NCBI GenBank assembly: GCA_017882525.1
Contig: JADGPI010000211.1
Span: forward strand, 1 to 17,827
From: Thermoleophilia bacterium
GTDB taxonomy: Bacteria; Actinomycetota; Thermoleophilia; RBG-16-64-13
Reading direction: 5' to 3'
Length of the DNA stretch: 17,827 bases
This document shows positions 535 to 16,696 of the stretch, piece by piece; the first letter of the stretch is position 1, and each line of letters begins with the position of its first letter. Both the position numbers and the translations under genes were made by a program. Under the pieces are notes generated by a model. The model worked only from the letters and a program-made list of their open reading frames with translations, ran no database searches and was not told where the DNA came from.

Positions 535-1470
535 ATGGCTGAGCCAGAAGCGCCCCGACAGCCGGGTCCTGAAGCGCCGCGGCAGCGGGGTGCTGAGCAC
601 CGCTCCGGCGCCTGGATCGTAGCGGAGACCCTAGGCACCAGTACAGACTTTCGGTCGAGACTCGATTTCGACAAGGGGAGTCTCGAATGGCGCCGGCTTT
701 TCTCAGAGCTCTTCGGCACCTTCCTCTTGGTGCTTGTGGCTGTCGGCGGCGGTATGGTCAACGCGCGGTTCGGCGGCCATGCGGTGCCGGTGGCCGCGCA
801 GGTCGTGGCGCCCGGCCTCATGGTGATGAGCGTCATCCTTTTCATGGGCGCGGTGTCCGGCGCCCATCTGAACCCCGGAGTCACCATCGCGTTCGCGCTG
901 CGCCGCGATTTCCGTTGGCAACGAGTGCCCGGCTACATCGCCGCCCAGTTTGCCGGCGCCCTGCTCGCCACACTCGTCCTGCGCGCCGTCCTCGGCGCGC
1001 AAGGGGCCGCGGGCTTGACTCTGCCCGGTCCAGGAGTCACAGCTACTACAGCCATGATCTGGGAGATAGTTCTCTCGGCGGGACTGGTGAGCGTGATCCT
1101 GGGCACGGCCTCAGGCGCCCAGGCGGTGGGCTGGGGGGCCGCGATCGGCGTGGGTGGCTACATCGCCTTGGCCGGCCTATTCGGCGCTCCCGTCAGCGGC
1201 GCCTCGATGAACCTGGCGCGGTCGTTGGGACCGGCTATCGTCCTGGAAGACTTCACGGCGTGGTGGGCTTATCTCGTCGGACCCCTCGTGGGAAGCGTTA
1301 TCGCCGTGGGCATCGCGTACGTCCTTCGCGGCGCCGGCGGAGGCACGATGGGCAGACGGGCAGGCTCCGGCACGCTCGGGGAGTTGTGGCACCCCGGACC
1401 GCTCCGCCCCCCCGTTCCCGCGCAGGATACCGATGGCCGTCCAGCGATGAGGCCCAGCAACGAGGACTGA
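535..1470 (+). CDS. MIP/aquaporin-family channel (aquaporin or glycerol-facilitator-like) with non-canonical NPA boxes: NPG in the first and NLA in the second.
   Basis: Seen in the translation: six hydrophobic helices. The MIP signatures SGAHLNPGVT (NPG at 871-879) and SGASMNLARSLGPA (NLA at 1210-1218) are present. LFSELFGTFLLV is a typical MIP helix-1 start. AGGGA lies 5 nt upstream of the ATG at 535. The ~50-aa N-terminal extension may be partly 5' UTR if a later start is used. Confidence 0.8.
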   Translation: MAEPEAPRQPGPEAPRQRGAEHRSGAWIVAETLGTSTDFRSRLDFDKGSLEWRRLFSELFGTFLLVLVAVGGGMVNARFGGHAVPVAAQVVAPGLMVMSVILFMGAVSGAHLNPGVTIAFALRRDFRWQRVPGYIAAQFAGALLATLVLRAVLGAQGAAGLTLPGPGVTATTAMIWEIVLSAGLVSVILGTASGAQAVGWGAAIGVGGYIALAGLFGAPVSGASMNLARSLGPAIVLEDFTAWWAYLVGPLVGSVIAVGIAYVLRGAGGGTMGRRAGSGTLGELWHPGPLRPPVPAQDTDGRPAMRPSNED

Positions 1471-1492
1471 GCGCCTGCTCGCAAACGACAGC

Positions 1493-1525
1493 GGCCCCGG
1501 TCCGCGCCTGTGGCGGACCGGGGCC
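1493..1525. terminator. GC-rich hairpin between convergent genes, consisting of a perfect 13-bp inverted repeat with a 7-nt loop. It is probably a bidirectional transcription terminator for the MIP gene (+) and the encapsulin gene (-).
   Basis: Seen in the sequence: GGCCCCGGTCCGC (1493-1505), loop GCCTGTG, then GCGGACCGGGGCC (1513-1525). It sits in the 98-nt gap between the two stop codons. There is no strong U-tract, which is common in high-GC genomes. Confidence 0.5.
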
Positions 1526-1568
1526 GGCAGCATGTGCCACAAAGTAGCGCCGCCAAAGCCAGGCGGCC

Positions 1569-2783
1569 CTACTTGATCACGCAGATCGCTCCCGGGGCGT
1601 AGAGTTGCAGCGCAAGACTTTCCGAGATTGTGAGCTGATATTCCAGGTCCGAGGTCGGACCGACATACCCGGCACGCAAGTCCTGCCCGACTACGATCTC
1701 CGCATATTGTTTACCCACCGCTATCAGCACGCCACCGTCGGTCAAGGCGGGGGCTTTGACCACGCCTTCGGTCACAATACTGCCGATGTGCTCCAATTCT
1801 GTCCCGTCGCTTTGCGGGTATCGGCGAAAGAGCAGATTGAACCTGTCAGGCGCAAGGGCAAGCGCATAGGGCCCGTGGAACCCAGCTCTATCGAGGGTGG
1901 TCACTGCTTCGATGATGGTATCCGCGGCCGCACCGATCTTGGTCCAAGGAGCAAGCTTCACCGTCTGCACACCTTCAGTGGTCGTCAGCCCGGCGACGCG
2001 AAGCGTGTCCGAGCCGTACAGAAGCAGCTTGTCTTCTTCCATGGCCAGATAGATAGCCGCCTCGGCGACGACACCCAGGTCCGGCTCGATCCCATTGGCC
2101 TCGAAAGCTGCCAGGTCCCTTCTTGGCAAGGTGAAGTTGGCCGCCAACTGGGCCACCGGGAACGTGGCACTCGCCGAAAATGTGATCCCGGTGTCTCCCG
2201 CGAACGTCTGATCTCTCTTCGGCAGGTGCCGCAACTCTAGGCCAAGCGGCCCCGCGACACTGACTATCCGGCGGACGCTCAATTGGCTGCGGGCCGCACC
2301 GATCACTACCTCATCGATCTTGGCCCAGACTCGGTCGCCAAAGGGAGCGTCACCGCGCTGCAGATACTTGGACATAGCCTTTTTCTCCCCTTCTTTCCGA
2401 TGTTCGTCCGGCTCTTCCGTCTCGACAGGGGACGCCGCCGCTTCCTGGGCCTCGACCCCATCACTGATTCCAGCTTCGCCGGCTCCTTCTGCCGGGCCGG
2501 AGGCCTCGCCTTCCGGGGGTTCCCAGTACGCCTCAGCCGCCTGCTCCATCTCCTCGAGCCGGTCGTAGTAGTCCGGGTATTCCTTTAGGTGCGCGAGAGC
2601 GATCTTCCCAGTAGTCTGAGGATCGTCGGCCGTGACGTTCGTCTGGGAATCGCAGAGTCCATGCTCCAACTCCACGTCCATGCCACGCCGGAATTGATCG
2701 ACCTCGAACGCCGACCAGTCGATGCCCAGGCTCTCGCCGATGGCCTGCGCCTCCTCGGCCGTAAACCTGCCTTCGCCGTCCAT
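1569..2783 (-). CDS. Family-1 encapsulin shell protein (HK97-fold, Linocin M18-like) with an in-frame N-terminal fusion. The fusion comprises a ~85-aa domain of unknown function (signature VELEHG...GKIALAHLKEYPDYYDRLEEME), a ~50-aa acidic G/A/E/P-rich linker, and then the shell domain from MSKYLQRG onward.
   Basis: The C-terminal ~268 aa align by eye to the T. maritima encapsulin (MEFLKRSFAPL...IDNRA...; GPYG~GPLG; ILGQDLSIGYE~VVGQDLRAGYV; the C-terminal hydrophobic ending). The fusion start ATG at 2783 has a GGGAGG RBS 6 nt upstream. The ORF is uninterrupted, and the N-terminal part has protein-like rather than GC-artefact composition. An internal AAGGGGAG sequence sits 9 nt upstream of the conventional shell start, M137, at 2375. 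Confidence 0.85.
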   Translation of the reverse strand: MDGEGRFTAEEAQAIGESLGIDWSAFEVDQFRRGMDVELEHGLCDSQTNVTADDPQTTGKIALAHLKEYPDYYDRLEEMEQAAEAYWEPPEGEASGPAEGAGEAGISDGVEAQEAAASPVETEEPDEHRKEGEKKAMSKYLQRGDAPFGDRVWAKIDEVVIGAARSQLSVRRIVSVAGPLGLELRHLPKRDQTFAGDTGITFSASATFPVAQLAANFTLPRRDLAAFEANGIEPDLGVVAEAAIYLAMEEDKLLLYGSDTLRVAGLTTTEGVQTVKLAPWTKIGAAADTIIEAVTTLDRAGFHGPYALALAPDRFNLLFRRYPQSDGTELEHIGSIVTEGVVKAPALTDGGVLIAVGKQYAEIVVGQDLRAGYVGPTSDLEYQLTISESLALQLYAPGAICVIK

Positions 2784-2918
2784 TCATTACCTCCCAGCAA
2801 TCAGCCAGGGTCGCTCAGCACGGGCAAGAGGTTAGTACCCAACTTGGCCCAGTCACTACCGCTCTCACCCGCATCCCGTCCGCTGCTCGCGGGTAAGCAG
2901 CCGCGCGTGGCGGCGTGG

Positions 2919-3221
2919 CTATTTGTTCTTCTCTTCGAGGCTGGTTATGGATCCCTCGGTGAAGAGGTAATCCTTGAGCTCTTTCGCCTGGACCGCGTCG
3001 TTGCGCCGGATCCATTCGAGAAGCATGGCGGCGTGTTCTTTCTCTTCGTCGCGATTGTGCGCGAGAACCGCTTTCAGCCTGGGATCCTTGCTGGTCTCCA
3101 CCCGCATGTCGTACCAAGCTGCTGCCTGGAGCTCTTCCATGAGTGATGCCACCGCCCGTTTCATGTCCCTCACGGCAGCGCTCAGCTCGTTTTCAGGCTC
3201 CGGGAGGTTCTCCAGTGCCAT
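2919..3221 (-). CDS. Encapsulated ferritin-like protein (EncFtn, family-1 encapsulin cargo with a ferroxidase ExxH motif) carrying a C-terminal targeting-peptide-like tail (TEGSITSLEEKNK).
   Basis: There is strong by-eye identity to R. rubrum EncFtn (MEELEAVDWYDQRVDASTDPELTAILAHNRDEEKEHAAMTLEWLRRNDA... versus MEELQAAAWYDMRVETSKDPRLKAVLAHNRDEEKEHAAMLLEWIRRNDA...). The start is set at the internal ATG (MALENL...) because AAGGAGG lies 5 nt upstream of it. The 13-codon extension in the ORF track (to 3260) is likely spurious. The gene sits immediately upstream of the encapsulin gene on the same strand. Confidence 0.9.
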   Translation of the reverse strand: MALENLPEPENELSAAVRDMKRAVASLMEELQAAAWYDMRVETSKDPRLKAVLAHNRDEEKEHAAMLLEWIRRNDAVQAKELKDYLFTEGSITSLEEKNK

Positions 3222-3277
3222 GATTCCTCCTTGCCGTCGTCGTTCGGGGCGCCACAACAAAAGGTGCGCTGCGCCGT

Positions 3278-3312
3278 CCCGCCTCTCTCGTAACTATTAC
3301 GCGAGAGGCGGG
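3278..3312. terminator. Stem-loop (13-bp stem with one mismatch region, 9-nt loop) downstream of the SLH-protein gene and upstream of the EncFtn start. It is probably the terminator of the surface-protein gene and the boundary of the encapsulin operon.
   Basis: Seen in the sequence: CCCGCCTCTCTCG taactatta CGCGAGAGGCGGG. On the minus strand it is followed about 18 nt later by a short T-run (CCTTTTGTTG). Confidence 0.4.
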
Positions 3313-3340
3313 TAGCCAAACTAGGCGGGCACGAAGGCGT

Positions 3341-5020
3341 TTACTGCTGGAGCAAGATGAGGGCGTTCCATTCGAGTTGGGCGACCTCTCCCCGGGTGAT
3401 CGGGCCGAGCGGATCGAGATCGTCGAGCGGGAGACCGGCGAGCAACAGGTTGTACTCGGCGCGCCGGGCGTTCTGCCCATGATCCGGGCTCAGACCCGTG
3501 GACCACGTGGAGTGATAGCTGGACGGGGGAGTCTTCAGCAGACCAGGGTGTAGGTCGTCAAGGCCCCGCACCACCATCGTGATGGCCTGGAACCGGGTGA
3601 TGTTGCCGTAGGGAAGGAACAATGTGGCCGTCTTGCCTTGCGTGATGTGGTGAGACGCAGCCACTGCCACGTAGTGATCCGGGTACAGCGGGTCGTTGGG
3701 ATCTACGAGATGACCGGCAGTGGTCTTCGGAACATCGGTGAAAGGAGAGACGTTCTGCTCGGAGACGGCGTAGCCGAGGGTCAGGACGACCGTCTTGGCG
3801 AACTGCTGCCGTGTGACAGGGGCGATGGGATGGAACGTGCCGTCGGTGAAGCCGCCGATGATCTTCCGGGTGGCCAACTGCACGATGGCGGCATGGTAGG
3901 CGCTGGTGGGAGGTACGTCGCTGAACAGCCAGGGCGCGGCCTTGGTCTTGAAGCTCCACGACACCGGTGCTCCCAGGATGCTCGCGCCGCTCGAACCCTT
4001 GATGGTGCCGTCCATGGTCACGATGTAGGTACTCTCGGGGTCGAGATCGGCGACGGCCTTGAGCGTAGCCGTCTTCCCGTTGCAGGTGACGTCGGCCGGG
4101 AGCGGCATGCCTCCCGATTTCTTGATGGTGAAGCTGGCCGAAGTCAGCGTGTCCTTACTGAGATCCCAATCGAAGGTCACGAAGACCCGGACGTCGAGAG
4201 GCACGTCCACGTCGCCGTCCGCGGGCGTGCGCGCGACGATCTGTGGCGGAACGGCCGGGATGGTCGTGAAAGTCCAAACGAATGGTGCTCCGAGCACGAA
4301 CATCCCGTCCAAAGCCCGAACCTCGGCGGTCATCGAGATCTGATACTTGGTGTTCTCCAGAAGCTGGGCCTGCGGAGTGAGGGTGGCGGTCCTCGTAGCG
4401 ACGTTGTAGTTGATGGCAGCAGGAAGAGGGGCGCCGCCTTGCTTCGCAAAGTGGAACGTGGAGGAAGTGAAGGTGGCCGGATCCATGTCGCTGTCGAACA
4501 CCACTGAAATCGCGGGGGCGATCGACTGGTTGACCGCCCCATCCGCCGGAGCCTGGCTGACGATGTGCGGTGGTATGGGTGGGACGGTGTCGAAGTGCCA
4601 GACGATGTCGGATTGCGACACGGACTGTTTGGTCGCCAGATGCACTCCGGTCGAGAGAGTCACGTAGTAGGTGGATCCCGCGGTGAGGCGAGCCGTGGGC
4701 GTAAGAGTGGCAGTCTTGGTGCCCAGATCGTATGTCACAGTCGCCGGCAGGGGAAATCCCGTGGCCTTGAGGACGGAGAAGTTGCCCGCGGTAACCGTGG
4801 CCGGGTCCAGGTCCTGGTCGAAAGTGATGGTAATCGCCTGGTTGACCGGGATGTCCGTTTGTCCATCGGCCGGCGTGCGGCTGATCACGTGCGGGGGCAG
4901 AACTAGGGCGGCGGCACTGGCAACCCCGCCCGATCCCATGACGCCCAAGCAAGCGAGCAGTCCTGCAAGCAGGAGCGGCGCCGCCAACCTGACGCTCCGA
5001 TTCAAGCCACACCTAACCAT
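3341..5020 (-). CDS. Secreted SLH-anchored cell-surface (S-layer-associated) protein. It has a signal peptide, four Ig-like (SbsA_Ig/Big_5-type) repeats that each begin PPH(V/I)(I/V)SxxPADG, and three C-terminal SLH domains.
   Basis: Seen in the translation: repeated PPHVISRTPADG, PPHIVSQAPADG and PPQIVARTPADG modules. The SLH signatures are FSDVPPTSAYHAAIVQLATRKIIGGFTDGTFHPIAPVTRQQFA, FTDVPKTT...ITRFQAITMVVRGL and ...GPITRGEVAQLEWNAL. The start is set at ATG 5020 (MVRCGLNRSVRLAAPLLLAGLLA, a signal peptide) because GGAGAAGGAG lies 5 nt upstream. The ORF-track start at 5089 adds 23 unlikely residues. Confidence 0.8.
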   Translation of the reverse strand: MVRCGLNRSVRLAAPLLLAGLLACLGVMGSGGVASAAALVLPPHVISRTPADGQTDIPVNQAITITFDQDLDPATVTAGNFSVLKATGFPLPATVTYDLGTKTATLTPTARLTAGSTYYVTLSTGVHLATKQSVSQSDIVWHFDTVPPIPPHIVSQAPADGAVNQSIAPAISVVFDSDMDPATFTSSTFHFAKQGGAPLPAAINYNVATRTATLTPQAQLLENTKYQISMTAEVRALDGMFVLGAPFVWTFTTIPAVPPQIVARTPADGDVDVPLDVRVFVTFDWDLSKDTLTSASFTIKKSGGMPLPADVTCNGKTATLKAVADLDPESTYIVTMDGTIKGSSGASILGAPVSWSFKTKAAPWLFSDVPPTSAYHAAIVQLATRKIIGGFTDGTFHPIAPVTRQQFAKTVVLTLGYAVSEQNVSPFTDVPKTTAGHLVDPNDPLYPDHYVAVAASHHITQGKTATLFLPYGNITRFQAITMVVRGLDDLHPGLLKTPPSSYHSTWSTGLSPDHGQNARRAEYNLLLAGLPLDDLDPLGPITRGEVAQLEWNALILLQQ

Positions 5021-10186: not shown

Positions 10187-10692
10187 CCGTGAGCTCCGTC
10201 GCCGAGATCATCAGGGAACGCGGCCTCGCAGAGCGAGGCGAGTTTGCAACCGACCAGTTGATCCCCCTGCTTCAGGAGATACAGGCGCGGGAGGGTCACG
10301 TTTCTGAGAAGGCGATGAGCGCTCTCGCGGCCGCGCTCGACACCTCTGTCGCGCGGGTGTACGGAGTGGCGACCTTCTACAACCAATTCCGCTTCGCGCC
10401 TTTGGGCGAGCATGTCATCGAGATCTGCCGGGGAACGGCGTGCCATGTCAAACAGAGCCTGGCTCTGGCACAGCACCTCAAGCGGCGGCTCAAGCTGCGC
10501 GAGGACGGCAACTCCTCCGACGGTCGTTTCACCGTCCTCAGCGTTGCCTGCTTGGGGGCCTGCTCGATCGCTCCGGTCTTGAAGCTGGACGGCGAGTTCT
10601 ACGGCCATCTCACGCTGGAGAAACTCGACGAACTGCTGGACAACGCCGGAAGCCCGCTCCAGGTCGCTCCACAGGAAGTGAGCTTGTCATGA
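10162..10692 (+). CDS. NuoE/HndA/HydC-like thioredoxin-fold [2Fe-2S] subunit of an NAD(P)H-linked multimeric hydrogenase.
   Basis: Seen in the translation: CRGTAC (Cx4C) and CLGACSIAP (Cx3C), the 2Fe-2S motifs typical of the NuoE family. The start is either ATG 10162, which overlaps the upstream gene by 25 nt, or the in-frame GTG 10189 just after its stop. The stop overlaps the next start (ATGA at 10689-10692). Confidence 0.8.
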   Translation: MATGGRGLAVSSVAEIIRERGLAERGEFATDQLIPLLQEIQAREGHVSEKAMSALAAALDTSVARVYGVATFYNQFRFAPLGEHVIEICRGTACHVKQSLALAQHLKRRLKLREDGNSSDGRFTVLSVACLGACSIAPVLKLDGEFYGHLTLEKLDELLDNAGSPLQVAPQEVSLS

Positions 10693-12704
10693 CCGAGAGC
10701 ACGCTTGTCGTCCCTTGCTGCTCCCGCTGCACCCACACCCTCAGTAACCCTTGCAGGGACCTGGTCTACTGCATCCAGAACGGTCCGGCATGCCACCAGT
10801 CCCCGGAGTGTTCGGAGGAGCGCGGGAAACGGCGCGCGCGCGTGCTCCGCGGCGGCGAAGACATCGTCCTCTACGTGGGTGCCGGCACATGTGGTCTGGC
10901 CAACGGCGCCGCTCGGGTCATCGAGAGATCTCGAGAATACTTTGCGGCGCGCTCCCTACCGGTGTCTGTGGTGGCAGTCGGCTGCGTGGGCTATTGCCAG
11001 CGCGAAGTGTTCGTCGACATGCGAGGCCGGGATGGAGTCCGCCTCTCCTATTGCGACCTGGGCCCGGACACCGTCGCCGAGTTCCTCGAGAGCGTCTTCG
11101 AGCGCGGCGAACTGCGCAACCGGTTCCTTTACGGTCGGTACCCGGACCCGTCGAGTGCTGCCGGGGCAGGCAGCCCCAGCTACGAGGACATCCCACTCAT
11201 CGGGGAAACACCGTTCTTCGAGCGCCAGACCCGTGTGGTACTCCAGAACTGCGGCGTCATAGATCCCGGGTCTGTGGACGCGGCCCTCGCTGCCGGCGGC
11301 TTCTCCTCCGCCGTACGGGCGCTCACTACCATGACCCGCGAAGAGGTGTGCCACACAGTACTTGCCTCCGGACTTCGGGGCCGGGGCGGGGCGGGCTTCC
11401 TCACCGGGCGGAAGTGGAAGATCGCATTGGAAACCCCGCGCGCTCAGAAGTACCTCATCTGCAACGCCGACGAGGGTGACCCCGGAGCGTTCATGGACCG
11501 CGCGGTGCTCGAGAGCGACCCGTTTCGGGTGCTCGAAGGCATGCTGATCGCAGCGTATGCGATCGGCGCGAGCAAAGGTTACGTGTACTGCCGGGCCGAG
11601 TACCCGCTCGCGATCGAACGCCTGCAGGATGCCATAGACCAGTGCCGCCGGGCCGGCTTCCTGGGCACCAACATCTTCGGAAGCCTCGTCGACTTCGACA
11701 TCAGTATCAAACAAGGCGCCGGGGCATTCGTCTGCGGTGAGGAGACGGCCATCCTAGCCAGCATCGAAGGGGGCAGGGGCACGCCCCGTCCTCGGCCGCC
11801 GTACCCGGCTGTGAGCGGCCTCCATGGCAAGCCGACCGTGCTCAACAACGTCGAGACCCTGGCGAACGTCCCGGAGATCCTACGCCGCGGGGCAGAGTGG
11901 TTCCGCGACCTGGGCTTGGGTGACGCGGCCGGCACCAAGGTCTTCGCCCTGAGCGGCCAGGTGCGGAACACCGGCCTGGTAGAGGTGCCGGTGGGCATCC
12001 CGTTGCGCGAGATAGTATGCGCGATCGGCGGCGGCGCTCCTGAAGGGCACCGGCTGAAAGCGGTCCAGATCGGCGGACCGAGCGGCGGCTGCATCCCCGA
12101 GCACCTGCTGGACGTGGCCACCGACTACGGTAAACTGCAGGAACTCGGCGCCATGATGGGCTCCGGGGGCATGGTCGTGATGGACGAGCGGACCTGCATG
12201 GTCGACGTGGCCAAGTACTTCATGGAGTTCATCCGCAACGAGTCGTGCGGCAAATGCACCCCGTGTCGGGAAGGCACCACACGCATGCACGAGATTCTCG
12301 TGGCCCTCACTGAGCGGCCGGTGGGAGAAGAGATCCGCCAGCTCGAGCGCTTCCGCGGTCTCCTCCACCTTGAAGAACTCGCGGATACCATCAAGGACAC
12401 CTCGCTGTGCGGGCTCGGACAGTCCGCCGCCAACCCCGTCCTTTCGACGCTCCGGTTCTTTCGCGACGAGTACGAGGCCCACATCATGGAGAACGTCTGT
12501 CCCGCCGGCGTCTGCCAGGGCCTCCGAACGTACAGCATCGACACCTCGATGTGCACGGGCTGCACACAGTGCCGCAAGAGTTGTCCCAGCGGCGCCATCG
12601 TCGGGGAACGCAAGAAGGTCCACTACATCGTCGTCGACCGTTGCGTCGGCTGCGGGGCCTGCGCCGACGCCTGCCCCAAGCAGGCCGTCGCAGCGGTGGC
12701 TTGA
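10689..12704 (+). CDS. NuoF/HndC/HydB-like flavoprotein subunit (NADH-binding, FMN, [4Fe-4S]). It has an N-terminal thioredoxin-like domain, two C-terminal [4Fe-4S] ferredoxin domains, and an unusual ~45-aa Cys-rich N-terminal extension.
   Basis: Seen in the translation: the NuoF signatures RGGAGFLTG and ESCGKCTPCREG; the C-terminal CTGCTQCRKSCP and CVGCGACADACP; and the N-terminal segment PCCSRCTHTLSNPCRDLVYCIQNGPACHQSPEC. The ATG start at 10689 is coupled (ATGA) to the upstream stop. The upstream part of the 10440 ORF overlaps the previous gene and is not used. Confidence 0.85.
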   Translation: MTESTLVVPCCSRCTHTLSNPCRDLVYCIQNGPACHQSPECSEERGKRRARVLRGGEDIVLYVGAGTCGLANGAARVIERSREYFAARSLPVSVVAVGCVGYCQREVFVDMRGRDGVRLSYCDLGPDTVAEFLESVFERGELRNRFLYGRYPDPSSAAGAGSPSYEDIPLIGETPFFERQTRVVLQNCGVIDPGSVDAALAAGGFSSAVRALTTMTREEVCHTVLASGLRGRGGAGFLTGRKWKIALETPRAQKYLICNADEGDPGAFMDRAVLESDPFRVLEGMLIAAYAIGASKGYVYCRAEYPLAIERLQDAIDQCRRAGFLGTNIFGSLVDFDISIKQGAGAFVCGEETAILASIEGGRGTPRPRPPYPAVSGLHGKPTVLNNVETLANVPEILRRGAEWFRDLGLGDAAGTKVFALSGQVRNTGLVEVPVGIPLREIVCAIGGGAPEGHRLKAVQIGGPSGGCIPEHLLDVATDYGKLQELGAMMGSGGMVVMDERTCMVDVAKYFMEFIRNESCGKCTPCREGTTRMHEILVALTERPVGEEIRQLERFRGLLHLEELADTIKDTSLCGLGQSAANPVLSTLRFFRDEYEAHIMENVCPAGVCQGLRTYSIDTSMCTGCTQCRKSCPSGAIVGERKKVHYIVVDRCVGCGACADACPKQAVAAVA

Positions 12705-12714
12705 AAGGTCTGCC

Positions 12715-14565
12715 ATGAACGTCACGATCAACGACAAGAAGCTGCGATCCGCTCCCGGCGAGACGGTGCTCCAAGTGGCCCGCAGGGCCGGCATCAACAT
12801 CCCACATCTGTGCTCGCTCGACTGGGCCCCGTCACCCTCGGCCTCCTGCCGCCTCTGCGTGGTGGAAGTCGAGGGTATGTCCAGGCTCCAGACCAGCTGC
12901 ACCCTGCCCGCGACGGAAGGCATGGTGGTCCGCACCCACACGCCGCGCGTCCTCAAGGCGCGCCGGGCCATCGTGGAGTTGCTCGTGGCCAACCATCCGC
13001 AGGACTGCCTCACCTGTTCGCGATCCGGCAAATGCGAACTGGCCGACTTGGCCGGTGACCTCGGCGTGCGGCAGCGGCGGTACGCAGGAGTCAAGAAAGA
13101 CCAACCTATCGACATCTCTTCGCCGGCGATCTGGCGAGATCCTAACAAATGCGTGCTCTGCGGACGCTGTGTGACCATGTGCCAGCACGTCCAGGGAGTG
13201 GGAGCGATCGATTTTACCGGGCGAGGCTTCCGCACTCAGGTCGCTCCTGGTTTTTACGCGGGGCTCAACGTCTCGGGGTGCGTATACTGCGGTCAATGCG
13301 TGCGGGTCTGCCCCACCGGGGCGCTCGTCGAACGGAGCCACGTCGACGCGGTCGTGGCAGAGCTTGGCGATCCAAACACAGTGGTGGTGGCGCAGATAGC
13401 GCCGGCAGTGCCGGCCACTCTCCTGAAAGGCCACAGCAAACGGCAAGACGTCCACTCGACCCTCGAGCGGCTGGCGGCAGCGCTCAAACATGTCGGCTTC
13501 ACCGCGATCTTCGATACCTGTTTCGCTGCCGACCTGACCATCATGGAAGAGGCCACCGAGCTTCTCCAGCGGGTCCAAAAGGGCGGCGTCCTCCCGATGT
13601 TCACGAGCTGCTCTCCGGCCTGGGTCCAATTCGTGGAAACGCACCGGCCCGACCTCATCCCCCACCTCTCCACGTGCAAGTCGCCCCAGCAGATGGCGGG
13701 CGCCCTGATCAAAGAGCTTTACCCAGGCTATGCCGGACTCGACGGCAAGCGACTGGTAGTCGTGTCTCTCATGCCCTGCACGGCCAAGAAGTTCGAGGCA
13801 CAGGACCAAGGAGACGTCGATTACGTGCTCACCACCCGCGAACTGGACGCGCTGTGGGATCGTTTCGGCATCGACTTCGCTGCATTCGAAGAACAAACGC
13901 CTCTCGACCCGCCGTTTTCGGAAGCCACCGGCGCCGGTCGCCTTTTCGGCGGCAGTGGCGGGGTGATGGAAGCGGCCGTGCGAACAGCGGCCACCCTGGT
14001 GGGAGGTGACGCCGCGACGATGGAGTTGACGACCGAGGCTCGAGGTCTCGACGGCGTCAAGTGCTTCACCGTTGAGCTCGGCGGGACCACCCTGAAACTG
14101 GGCGTAATCAACGGCCTTGGCCGGCTGCGCCCGGCCCTGGACGAAGTGTTGTCGGATCTTCATTTCGTGGAAGTCATGTCCTGTCCCGGAGGGTGCGTGG
14201 GCGGCGGCGGCCAACCGTATGGCAGCGAGATCGAGGACGTGCGCAAAAGGCAGGGAAATCTCTACCAAGCCGACCTGCGTTCGGACGCCCGCGGCTCCCA
14301 CGAGAACGCCGGTGTGGCTGCCCTCTACCAGGACCTTCTGGGCCGTCCGCTCAGTGAAGTGTCGCATCACCTGCTGCACCGCGAGTACGCGGACCGAAGT
14401 GGCGGTAACGGCGATGATGCCCCCCTTTCGGCAGTGAGCGGCGCCGCGCACCATGCGGCCGACGCGGCCGCTCCGCGCGCGGCCGCAGCCCAGGCGCCCG
14501 TCCGCGAAGCCCCTTCGCTCGCAGCCGTCGGCGCGGCCGCGGCGGCCGCCGGCAGGGAAGACTGA
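12715..14565 (+). CDS. hydA: [FeFe]-hydrogenase large subunit HydA, with M3-type architecture. It has a plant-type [2Fe-2S] domain, a His-ligated [4Fe-4S], two [4Fe-4S] ferredoxin domains and the H-cluster domain, followed by an Ala-rich C-terminal tail. Its L1 motif deviates from canonical, reading TSCSPAW.
   Basis: Seen in the translation: HPQDCLTCSRSGKC (Hx3Cx2Cx5C); CVLCGRCVTMC and CVYCGQCVRVCP; the H-cluster motifs L2 MPCTAKKFE (13771-13797) and L3 EVMSCPGGCVGGGGQP (14171-14218); and L1 FTSCSPAW (13603-13623) instead of TSCCPxW. The start is ATG 12715, 10 nt after the hydB stop. The upstream part of the 12370 ORF is a GC-frame artefact. Confidence 0.85.
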   Translation: MNVTINDKKLRSAPGETVLQVARRAGINIPHLCSLDWAPSPSASCRLCVVEVEGMSRLQTSCTLPATEGMVVRTHTPRVLKARRAIVELLVANHPQDCLTCSRSGKCELADLAGDLGVRQRRYAGVKKDQPIDISSPAIWRDPNKCVLCGRCVTMCQHVQGVGAIDFTGRGFRTQVAPGFYAGLNVSGCVYCGQCVRVCPTGALVERSHVDAVVAELGDPNTVVVAQIAPAVPATLLKGHSKRQDVHSTLERLAAALKHVGFTAIFDTCFAADLTIMEEATELLQRVQKGGVLPMFTSCSPAWVQFVETHRPDLIPHLSTCKSPQQMAGALIKELYPGYAGLDGKRLVVVSLMPCTAKKFEAQDQGDVDYVLTTRELDALWDRFGIDFAAFEEQTPLDPPFSEATGAGRLFGGSGGVMEAAVRTAATLVGGDAATMELTTEARGLDGVKCFTVELGGTTLKLGVINGLGRLRPALDEVLSDLHFVEVMSCPGGCVGGGGQPYGSEIEDVRKRQGNLYQADLRSDARGSHENAGVAALYQDLLGRPLSEVSHHLLHREYADRSGGNGDDAPLSAVSGAAHHAADAAAPRAAAAQAPVREAPSLAAVGAAAAAAGRED

Positions 14566-14572
14566 GGGCCCC

Positions 14573-16696
14573 GTGGACGGCATCATCACAACCATCAAAC
14601 AGAACTGCCGCCGCTGCTTCACGTGCGTGCGCGACTGCCCGGCCAAAGCGATCCGCATCGAGGATGGCCAGGCTTCAGTGGTGACCGAACGCTGCATCGG
14701 GTGCGGCAACTGCACCATCGTCTGCTCGCAGAACGCCAAAGCGTATCTCGACAGCACCGAACGTGCGTTCTGGCTGCTCGACCGGGGCGGCACGGTCGCG
14801 GCTCTCCTGGCCCCGTCGTTTCCCGCAGGCTTCTCCGCGCCGCCCGCGCAAGTCGTCGGAGCTCTTCGGAAAGTGGGCTTCGCGTATGTGGTGGAAGTCG
14901 CATATGGCGCGGAACTCGTGAATCAGGCCTACCGCGACTACCTTGGCGAGCACCCGACAGGCGTCCACATTGCAACCGCGTGCACCGCGGTGGTCGAATA
15001 CGTGCGGAAATACCGCCCCCAACTCACCGAGCGACTCATTCCCATCGTCTCTCCCATGGTGGCGACGGCCCTTGCCGTGAAAGCTCGGTATGGCCAGCAC
15101 GTCCGCTGTGTGTTCATTGGGCCTTGCGTGGCGAAAAAAGGTGAGGCACGGTACCCCGGAGTTGTGGGAGTCGTGGATGAAGTCCTCACGCTGACCGAGG
15201 CGACGACCGTGCTCACCGCGCGCGGCATCGACCCGGCGCAAACCCCCGCCAGCGACTTCGACCCCCCGTTCGCGGGAGAAGCCCGTGTCTTTCCGATCCC
15301 CGGAGGAATGCTGGAAAGCGCCCGATTGGGCGGCGGGATCCTCGACCCGGAGCTGATCGTGGTAAGCGGTCACGACGAGACCATCCAGGCCCTTGACGCG
15401 CTCCCCGAGGGTGAGACCGACAAGGCATTGCTGGTGGAAGCCCTCATGTGCAACGGCTGCTATTGCGGACCAGGGGTGCAGACCCTGGAGCCGGCCGTGA
15501 TGCGCAAGCGCCGGGTGATCGAGTTCGCGGCCGACAGCCTTCGCCGGCAGGGATCCGGAGAGCTGCCTGCCTGCGATGAGACGGATACCTCTCTTTGGCT
15601 CGGTCGTGAGTACACCTCCGACGACCGGCGGTACGACCAGCCGAGTGAAGAGAAGATCCGGGAGATCCTGGCCCGCACCAACAAGTTCTTCCCCGAAGAC
15701 GAGCTCAACTGCGGAGCCTGCGGATACCCCACCTGCCGCGCCAAGGCCACCGCGGTGGTGAGCGGCATGGCGGAGGAAGCCATGTGCCTGCCGTTCATGA
15801 TCGAGCAGGCCGAGCGGGTCTGCCACGAGCTTCGCGTGCCGTGGAAAGACCTGCGTGAAGTGCACCGCCACCTCATCAACACCGAGAAGCTGGCTTCGAT
15901 GGGGCAGATGGCGGCCGGCGTCGCCCACGAGTTGAACAACCCACTCAGCAGCATCCTGCTCTACTCCCACATCCTGGGGCGCAAGCTCGAGGACCGGCCC
16001 GACCTGAGCCACGACCTCAAGCTCGTCGCCGACGAGTCGGAGCGCTGCAAGAAGATCATCGGCAACCTACTCGACTTCGCCCGGCAAACCCGGGTGCACA
16101 TCGAAGCGGTCTCGATCGATGAACTCGTTCGCTCGGCCGTGGACGCGGCCGCATGCAACTTGAGCCCCGGCCCTGGCGGGGCAACCGCGGGCGGCGCCGG
16201 GCGGAACGGCGCGGGGCCGCATGGACCGCGCTCTGGCGGTGGGGTGGAGCTCACACTCGAAGTGACCCCTGGGCTGCAGGCCGACCTGGACCGCGATCAG
16301 ATGACGCAGGTTCTAGTCAACCTCCTCAAGAACGGAGTCGAGGCCATGGAGGGCCGCACCGGCGTCGTGAAACTGTCGGCATATGAGATTCCCGAGCAGC
16401 ATCGGGTCCACTTCGCGGTCAGCGACCAAGGGTGCGGCATCCCAGGCGGCGCTCAGGACAAGGTGTTCCAGCCGTTCTTCACCACCAAGAGCATCGGCAA
16501 GGGAACAGGCCTTGGTCTTCCGATCTCGTACGGCATCGTGAAGATGCACGGCGGCACCATCTGGTTCGAGTCCCAACCCGATCAAGGCACCACTTTCCAC
16601 GTGGAGATCCCCATAACCCATGCGGCCGGTGAGAAGCCCATGACGACAGAGAAGCCCTTCTTACCGAACCAACCTCCCAAGGAGTATGTGATATGA
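14573..16696 (+). CDS. Sensory-type (HydS-like, group C-like) [FeFe]-hydrogenase domain fused to a histidine-kinase transmitter. The order is two [4Fe-4S] ferredoxin domains, a divergent H-cluster domain, a Cx2Cx4Cx16C motif, then HisKA (H-box HELNNPL) and HATPase_c. It is a putative H2-sensing histidine kinase.
   Basis: Seen in the translation: CRRCFTCVRDCP and CIGCGNCTIVC; an H-domain that aligns colinearly with the adjacent HydA (TACTAVV for L1, GPCVAKKGE for L2 and EALMCNGCYCGPG for L3); NCGACGYPTC...x16...C; AAGVAHELNNPLSSI; and the N/G boxes LLKNGVEAM, DQGCGI and GTGLGLPIS. The start is set at GTG 14573, 8 nt after the hydA stop. The ATG at 14453 would add a 40-aa P/R-rich segment overlapping hydA. 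The stop overlaps the next start (ATGA at 16693-16696). Confidence 0.8.
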   Translation: MDGIITTIKQNCRRCFTCVRDCPAKAIRIEDGQASVVTERCIGCGNCTIVCSQNAKAYLDSTERAFWLLDRGGTVAALLAPSFPAGFSAPPAQVVGALRKVGFAYVVEVAYGAELVNQAYRDYLGEHPTGVHIATACTAVVEYVRKYRPQLTERLIPIVSPMVATALAVKARYGQHVRCVFIGPCVAKKGEARYPGVVGVVDEVLTLTEATTVLTARGIDPAQTPASDFDPPFAGEARVFPIPGGMLESARLGGGILDPELIVVSGHDETIQALDALPEGETDKALLVEALMCNGCYCGPGVQTLEPAVMRKRRVIEFAADSLRRQGSGELPACDETDTSLWLGREYTSDDRRYDQPSEEKIREILARTNKFFPEDELNCGACGYPTCRAKATAVVSGMAEEAMCLPFMIEQAERVCHELRVPWKDLREVHRHLINTEKLASMGQMAAGVAHELNNPLSSILLYSHILGRKLEDRPDLSHDLKLVADESERCKKIIGNLLDFARQTRVHIEAVSIDELVRSAVDAAACNLSPGPGGATAGGAGRNGAGPHGPRSGGGVELTLEVTPGLQADLDRDQMTQVLVNLLKNGVEAMEGRTGVVKLSAYEIPEQHRVHFAVSDQGCGIPGGAQDKVFQPFFTTKSIGKGTGLGLPISYGIVKMHGGTIWFESQPDQGTTFHVEIPITHAAGEKPMTTEKPFLPNQPPKEYVI

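Follow-up and report, generated by a model that had tools for sequence, protein, structure and literature searches.

Gene layout of the DUF5661-encapsulin fusion

The 17,827-nucleotide (nt) contig JADGPI010000211.1 of a Thermoleophilia bacterium, analysed here over its whole length and called the window below, carries a gene in which a DUF5661 domain is joined through a disordered linker to an encapsulin shell protein. Inside this open reading frame (ORF), a Shine-Dalgarno (SD)-like purine block precedes an in-frame ATG at the position where unfused encapsulins begin. The block and the ATG are conserved across the orthologues of the gene, and they may give rise to two shell protomers, one fused and one plain. 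The features of the fusion gene are as follows.

1569..2783, minus strand: full-length fused shell ORF, from the ORF list; 404 amino acids (aa), 43.3 kDa; DUF5661, disordered linker and family 1 encapsulin
2790..2795, minus strand: SD GGGAGG of the full-length start, 6 nt 5' of its ATG; invariant among group A orthologues
2781..2783, minus strand: ATG of the long (fused) isoform, from the sequence and the ORF list; all orthologues are called from the same start
2541..2750, minus strand: four-helix DUF5661 domain, residues 12-81
2376..2519, minus strand: acidic disordered linker, residues 89-136, from alignment; hypervariable in length and sequence across orthologues
2385..2392, minus strand: internal SD-like block AAGGGGAG, in codons for Glu-Gly-Glu, 9 nt 5' of the internal ATG
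2376..2384, minus strand: spacer AAAAAGGCT, 9 nt, from the sequence
2373..2375, minus strand: internal in-frame ATG (Met137), candidate start codon for the short isoform, in register with residue 1 of unfused encapsulins
1569..2375, minus strand: proposed short cistron for a plain family 1 encapsulin protomer; 268 aa, 28.6 kDa

Pfam places PF18905 (DUF5661) at residues 12-81 and PF04454 (Linocin_M18) at residues 139-391, the latter with 217.5 bits against a cut-off of 24.3. The NCBIfam profile NF041155 (encap_f1) matches residues 141-403 with 218.2 bits (cut-off 100) and is covered from position 1 to 261 of 261. Thirty-seven solved encapsulins also match the fusion ORF, with E-values down to 1.6e-36. 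By these matches, the shell part of 1569-2783 is a family 1 encapsulin with the HK97 fold. The AlphaFold2 model of the full-length protein has low confidence (mean predicted local distance difference test score, pLDDT, of 61.5), and pLDDT stays below 50 across residues 89-141, which predicts disorder there.

Candidate internal start site and its conservation

On the minus strand the junction between linker and shell domain reads ...CGG AAA GAA GGG GAG AAA AAG GCT ATG TCC AAG TAT CTG.... Alignments match query residue 137 with residue 1 in many unfused cluster representatives, and query residue 139 with residues 2-3 of solved encapsulins. The ORF contains four internal ATGs, three of which lack a spaced SD-like block; the exception is Met137. 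A sequence-only reading of this DNA had located an internal SD and an in-frame ATG at the canonical encapsulin start; its coordinates and description agree with the sequence, the ORF list and the alignments. It had also called the SD "consensus-like", which overstates the case: the block is not a strong consensus, and its GGAG-to-ATG distance of 9 nt exceeds that of most annotated starts in these loci. As a measure of SD strength, pairing with the anti-SD CACCUCCUUU was scored by duplex energy between positions -18 and -4. The window junction scores -8.2 kcal/mol (-9.3 kcal/mol with a longer anti-SD tail); the medians are -8.9 kcal/mol for the 64 starts annotated in the window or the orthologous loci and -3.0 kcal/mol for 299 other internal in-frame ATGs. 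A scan of 1400-3400 for E. coli-type promoters only found no sigma-70-like internal promoter from which a separate short transcript could arise. In the window alone, the internal SD and ATG are real yet not significant; their significance comes from conservation among orthologues. Codon choice alone was dropped as proof of the window SD, since synonymous recoding of the seven codons before the ATG gave no significant result (P = 0.37; most orthologues likewise).

A protein search found 17 further clusters (90% identity) with the DUF5661-linker-encapsulin architecture, at 49-97% identity, which makes 18 with that of the window. A neighbour-joining tree built on the encapsulin domain groups all fusions in one clade, with the 43 unfused homologues outside it, and a single, old fusion is therefore indicated. 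Fusion lineages are mutually only 49-59% identical, and their linkers, of 27-49 residues, cannot be aligned between lineages. The long ORF is itself genuine: indels in the linker do not break its frame, its start is preceded by an SD of its own, and DUF5661 is strongly conserved (84% mean column identity). All 18 fusion clusters keep the junction Met, with a one-residue deletion directly after it in P0018, and so do all 15 variant sequences in the cluster of the window itself (≥90% identity).

DNA was compared for 12 distinct orthologues, sorted into groups A-E; fusion clusters P0005, P0008, P0009, P0013, P0014 and P0017 were left out. A purine SD-like block lies 7-10 nt 5' of the junction ATG in 12/12 of these DNAs, in the forms GGGGAG, GAGGAG, AAGGAG, AGGGAG, GGGAGG, AAGGGAG and AAAGGGA. 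The individual junctions are:

Window and L161: GGGGAG-N9-ATG
L167: GGGGGAG-N9-ATG
L163 and L164: GAGGAG-N9-ATG
L166: AAGGAGAG, with the Gly codon GGG changed to GGA
L168: AAGGAG-N9-ATG
L169 and L170: AAGGGAG-N9-ATG
L171: GGGAGG-N7-ATG
L174: AAGGGAG-N10-ATG
L172 and L173: GAAAGGGA

Duplex energies at the junction are -8.2 to -10.9 kcal/mol in 10 of the 12 orthologues. With a 16S tail assumed to end in ...CCUCCUUUCU, all 12 fall between -8.6 and -12.6 kcal/mol, and the annotated-start median is -9.4 kcal/mol. In groups A-C, an equally strong SD occurs elsewhere at 0-11% of linker positions; with the short anti-SD, the group D junction SD is not distinctive within its linker. The sequence-only reading had proposed conservation of the SD in orthologues as a check, and the outcome is favourable: the SD-like block and the ATG persist in all 12 DNAs, also where linkers encode different amino acids.

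Constraint on nucleotides and on amino acids

Comparison of codons among the orthologues indicates that constraint at the junction is exerted on nucleotides, beyond what the encoded amino acids require. Codon -5 is GGG, GAG, AAG or AGG, that is, all four RRG codons and no other, although the residues they specify (Gly, Glu, Lys and Arg) are chemically unrelated. Codon -4 is GAG in all eight group A and B sequences, compared with codon uniformity in 2/10 of the columns of conserved Glu overall. The linker of L171 encodes QGGTG in place of GEKKA and still spells GGGAGG. Rare AGR (AGA/AGG) Arg codons in lineages B-D cluster at the junction, with 10/13 within positions -8 to +10 against 6/82 elsewhere in the same genes (Fisher p = 1.9e-7), and the enrichment holds with one sequence per lineage (4/5 against 2/43, p = 3.7e-4). 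Among the 15 variants of the window's cluster, residues -9 (R/W/Q), -8 (K/I), -7 (E/K) and -3 (K/I) vary, and the Gly-Glu SD core, Lys-Ala and Met are invariant. Synonymous sites are saturated across lineages, with mixed codons in 136 of 147 columns of conserved residues, so a neutral relic should have decayed. Synonymous uniformity near the junction gave no signal (1/4 columns uniform against 11/147 elsewhere, p = 0.28), with few informative columns.

Recurrent features also occur within the otherwise variable linkers. Groups A, C, D and E share a His that follows acidic residues (DEH, EDH, EEH, KHEE, PEH, RPH) and lies 9-12 residues ahead of the junction Met (window 2400-2408, minus strand; L161, L163, L164, L171, L172, L173 and L174). 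Group B linkers carry SSS, SSI or SST at the position of this His, and the remaining linker is hypervariable.

mRNA structure at the annotated and the proposed start

Two features of predicted mRNA structure accompany the two start regions.

2345..2415, minus strand: low-structure, AT-rich mRNA stretch around the internal start (71-nt fold)
2793..2809, minus strand: predicted hairpin CCUGGC-UGAUU-GCUGGG; its 3' arm takes in the first three G of the full-length SD; given as a lead

The 71-nt junction segment has a minimum free energy of -10.8 kcal/mol, which is equalled or bettered by 197 of 200 dinucleotide shuffles (z = +1.91). The region of the annotated start folds at -21.3 kcal/mol, which is not significant (z = -0.48). 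Across the orthologues, 71-nt junction segments fold more weakly than dinucleotide shuffles (positive z) in 10/12. Opening energy over positions -18 to +12 points in the same direction. At the window junction it is 4.8 kcal/mol, in the lowest 2% of codon positions; among the 12 orthologues, 10 have it in the lowest 1-8% and the remaining two at 13% and 18%, and in every one of the 12 it is below that of the annotated start. GC content at the window junction is 0.43, against 0.62 for the coding sequence as a whole; the local values are 0.43-0.50 in 11/12 orthologues and 0.60 in L171, compared with 0.62-0.66 for their coding sequences. Low mRNA structure of this kind is typical of initiation regions.

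For the predicted hairpin over the full-length SD, a consensus fold of five group A sequences has all 6 pairs invariant and a variable loop, without covariation. The surrounding segment of about 90 nt 5' of the shell gene, at the end of the intergenic region between EncFtn and shell gene (window 2784-2880, minus strand), is strongly conserved in group A and includes GGTAG(G/T)GAC...TTGGGTACTA in addition to the CCUGGC-loop-GCUGGG hairpin. No Rfam family matches in the window.

Proposed dual-start mechanism

On balance, we lean towards a functional internal initiation site in this gene, which would supply 43.3-kDa fused and 28.6-kDa plain protomers that co-assemble. Initiation at the ATG at 2783 would give the 404-aa protomer, in which a linker of about 50 disordered residues tethers DUF5661 to the lumen-facing N-terminus of the encapsulin. 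Ribosomes that enter at the internal region (purine SD at 2392-2385, ATG at 2375, unstructured AT-rich surroundings) would make the plain 268-aa protomer. Since the HK97-fold shell domain is complete in both, the long and short forms should co-assemble. How many DUF5661 domains project into the lumen of each shell would then depend on how strong the two initiation regions are relative to each other, so that the tethered cargo would be sub-stoichiometric. Initiation at the site, co-assembly of the isoforms and a purpose in stoichiometry control are the predicted elements of this scheme.

The sequence-only reading had likewise suggested two isoforms, with mixing as a way to relieve crowding by 180 tethered domains and to leave room for EncFtn, which is encoded directly upstream:

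2919..3221, minus strand: EncFtn (encapsulated ferritin) cargo gene; 100 aa; PF22277, E = 6.6e-35

The potential for two isoforms survives, as the comparative test was passed and the site has low mRNA structure; the rationale is weak. The figure of 180 presumes a triangulation number of T=3. Among solved homologues, shells of EncA type and Q. thermotolerans type come closest (T=3/T=4-type, E of about 1e-35; T=1 types score 1e-16 to 1e-19), and this proximity does not fix the T number of the predicted shell. In groups A and C, orthologues of the 100-aa EncFtn are encoded upstream of the shell gene. The internal site is also present in groups B, D and E, where no EncFtn gene adjoins the shell gene, and room for EncFtn therefore fails as a general rationale; with no EncFtn next to the shell gene, DUF5661 may be the sole cargo in groups B and D. 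We calculate that 136 residues per protomer, in a shell of 60 or of 180 protomers, would take up about one third of the lumen, which is crowded yet feasible. The C-terminus of the window EncFtn, ...EGSITSLEEKNK, resembles known GS-rich targeting peptides, as judged by eye only.

Alternative explanations

Several observations weigh against internal initiation, and they are best considered together with what else could produce such a junction. An upstream DUF5661 gene may have lost its stop codon, leaving an old SD and start frozen in the linker; the purine block would then reflect a Glu/Lys/Gly-rich linker, and only the full-length protein would be made. We regard this combination of relic and composition as unlikely. 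The recoding tests agree with it, as they are not significant for most orthologues: P < 0.05 is reached in only 2/12, and in the window 37% of synonymous recodings of KEGEKKA have an equal or stronger SD (P = 0.37). The SD-like string in the window is largely forced, because Glu-Gly-Glu can hardly avoid GARGGNGAR, and acidic, Lys-rich linkers are purine-rich through the genetic code. Among the 299 internal in-frame ATGs of the related loci, 8% equal or beat the -8.2 kcal/mol of the window. Several linkers equal the junction score at 20-40% of their positions (L170 and L174, where an equally strong SD occurs at 28% and 34% of linker positions, respectively; also L163, L164 and L170 with the longer anti-SD), and, with the shorter anti-SD, the group D junctions (L172 and L173) do not go beyond -5.2 and -5.3 kcal/mol. 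The GGAG-to-ATG spacing of 9 nt is longer than that of typical real starts (annotated starts with GGAG mostly have 2-8 nt), so initiation may be inefficient, and ribosomes already translating from the upstream start may block the site. Nor does assembly need a plain isoform, since P. furiosus-type Flp-fusion encapsulins are described as assembling from fused protomers (PMC8346489) and full occupancy is physically possible. A relic would nonetheless have had to persist in a deep clade with saturated synonymous sites and an unalignable linker, where a neutral 6-nt motif at a fixed distance from an ATG should have decayed. It would also have to accommodate the limitation of codon -5 to four RRG codons for unrelated residues, the enrichment of AGR Arg codons at the junction, the micro-diversity that leaves the SD core untouched and the consistently unstructured mRNA.

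The junction could instead serve the full-length protein, with Met capping the N-terminal helix of the encapsulin and the purine tract acting as an elongation pause between domains or encoding a required charged segment. Met abuts the conserved block MS[KD]YLQR.DAPF, so it may be retained at the protein level, which also counts against reading it as a start codon, and the element falls exactly on the domain boundary, where disorder is predicted. Yet it is the nucleotides before Met that are constrained and not the residues, which are chemically free (G/E/K/R at -5; GEKKA, RENKA, QGGTG, ERDRD and EGSQTT). The equivalent Met in unfused homologues is a plain initiator, the residues after Met vary in length, and SD pausing needs neither an ATG at a fixed distance nor low mRNA structure; a role in the full-length protein is improbable. 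A plain protomer might also arise by proteolysis, through trimming of the N-terminal domain and linker in the manner of HK97-type Delta-domain removal. A long disordered linker is accessible to proteases, and N-terminal scaffold domains on HK97-fold capsid proteins are a known fusion type (PMC11664910), but the conserved neighbourhood in the window and orthologous loci has no protease gene, and trimming leaves the conserved ATG, the SD-like block and the unstructured mRNA unexplained. We consider proteolysis very improbable.

Comparison with known systems

Internal in-frame initiation is a known bacterial mechanism, and the DUF5661-encapsulin fusion class is undescribed. In the shell of the Pdu microcompartment, one gene encodes PduB and PduB' in the same frame by means of an internal start, and the longer product assembles together with the shorter. 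Tailed phages have nested in-frame genes of this kind in scaffolding and capsid assembly, such as lambda C/Nu3, which also uses an internal start. CcmM of beta-carboxysomes occurs as full-length M58, with an extra N-terminal domain, and as short M35, made from a ribosome-binding site and in-frame start within the gene (PMC8580825). CcmM and the fusion gene have in common a single compartment gene, two isoforms (for the fusion gene, proposed), an internal start at a domain boundary after a flexible linker and isoforms that act in one assembly. CcmM differs as a cargo scaffold and not a shell protein, and its short form was demonstrated experimentally, whereas that of the DUF5661-encapsulin is predicted from sequence conservation. 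Further bacterial genes with in-frame dual starts are SctQ/Spa33/HrcQ and the endolysin CTP1L (PMC6925163, PMC8553256, PMC4777826). These, like PduB/PduB', resemble the proposed dual-start gene in having co-assembling long and short in-frame products from an internal start; they belong to other families and folds, with no HK97-fold shell and no cargo-like domain tethered to a lumen.

The Delta-domain of HK97 is an N-terminal fusion on an HK97-fold shell (PMC11664910). Together with the nested phage genes, it parallels the proposal in that auxiliary domains of HK97-fold systems are either fused at the N-terminus or made from internal starts in a way that sets stoichiometry. In phages, however, the short product is a scaffold and not a shell subunit, and fused domains are removed by a protease; the window has neither protease nor packaging genes.

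Two surveys list only Flp and cytochrome c as N-terminal fusions in family 1 encapsulins (PMC8346489, PMC11664910), and Flp-fusion shells carry the fused domain on every protomer (PMC8346489). Archaeal Flp-fusion encapsulins and the anammox cEnc share with the window gene a lumenal domain and a flexible linker at the N-terminus of a family 1 HK97-fold shell. Their fused domain is ferritin-like or a diheme cytochrome c, in contrast to DUF5661 in the window gene, and some DUF5661-fusion lineages also have a separate EncFtn cargo gene, unlike Flp-fusion encapsulins and cEnc. Neither survey mentions an internal start or mixed shells for Flp-fusion encapsulins or cEnc (PMC8346489, PMC11664910). A literature search found no paper that links encapsulins with DUF5661 or with internal translation starts.

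Annotation and distribution of the fusion

The same gene is listed publicly as 404 aa or 268 aa, which is an annotation problem. Two public gene calls start at the internal ATG (P0012/L166 and P0277), and these are choices of annotators and not biological evidence. HEY5529206.1 (P0277), a near-identical protein from a Thermoleophilia metagenome-assembled genome (MAG), is annotated by NCBI in the 268-aa form. P0012/L166, a close relative of 268 aa that appears unfused, was considered as a natural short gene and rejected: its contig starts 38 nt 5' of the ATG, with an open frame up to the edge, so it is a truncated fusion.

Scans of genome and metagenome contigs for DUF5661 gave at least 160 loci, and the sole fusion among the matches listed is L001. 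This gene (3001-4260), from a MAG labelled uncultured delta proteobacterium, is split over three frames, which looks like assembly indel errors and not like a pseudogene; its junction (GGGGGG instead of GGGGAG) was not used because of the frameshifts across the gene. Among the best 150 matches to cluster representatives at 50% identity (1.84 billion searched), there was no further fusion, and the DUF5661-encapsulin fusion is thus probably rare. Stand-alone DUF5661 proteins, with 60-77% identity to the fused domain, are widespread among the matches listed, in Patescibacteria, DPANN and other archaea, Chloroflexota, Actinomycetota and Syntrophomonadaceae, and some DUF5661 representatives hold the domain twice or within larger proteins. 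A scan of viral contigs for encapsulin relatives gave no matches.

Genomic neighbourhood

Genes found next to the fusion gene in the window and orthologous loci encode EncFtn, an MIP channel, thioredoxin-reductase-like and S-layer-like proteins, L,D-transpeptidase and hydrogenase; no protease, portal or terminase genes lie near it in these loci. Further features in the window are:

1492..1526, minus strand: terminator-like GC-rich hairpin 3' of the encapsulin stop codon; 14 pairs, 13 of them GC
535-1470, plus strand: MIP-family channel gene, convergent downstream of the encapsulin gene; the arrangement is kept in group A loci L161, L163 and L164
10440-16696, plus strand: [FeFe]-hydrogenase cluster, with a NuoF-like flavoprotein (10440-12704), a HydA-type large subunit (12370-14565) and a fusion of a hydrogenase-like domain with a histidine kinase (14453-16696)

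Given the [FeFe]-hydrogenase cluster, the host is likely an anaerobe. Polyphosphate-metabolism genes (PPK2, PPK1, Ppx-GppA and CYTH-CHAD) flank the fusion gene in L164 (1222-2058 and 5411-7048), L168 (1-5780) and L169 (1-2800). The proximity of polyphosphate genes in several lineages may bear on the storage of iron and phosphate.

Implications

Encapsulins are of interest both as bacterial organelles and as an engineering chassis, and their cargo load is usually credited to separate cargo genes with targeting peptides or to all-or-none fusion. The chances are evenly balanced that members of the DUF5661-encapsulin clade make mixed shells through a conserved internal start, with occupancy set by the ratio of the two ribosome-binding sites and possibly tuned by the hairpin over the upstream SD. 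Such shells would be the first natural case of stoichiometry control for an encapsulin shell and would constitute a third, undescribed class of family 1 fusion. If this is true, a single gene would provide a natural, tunable route to shells that are partly occupied by a tethered domain.

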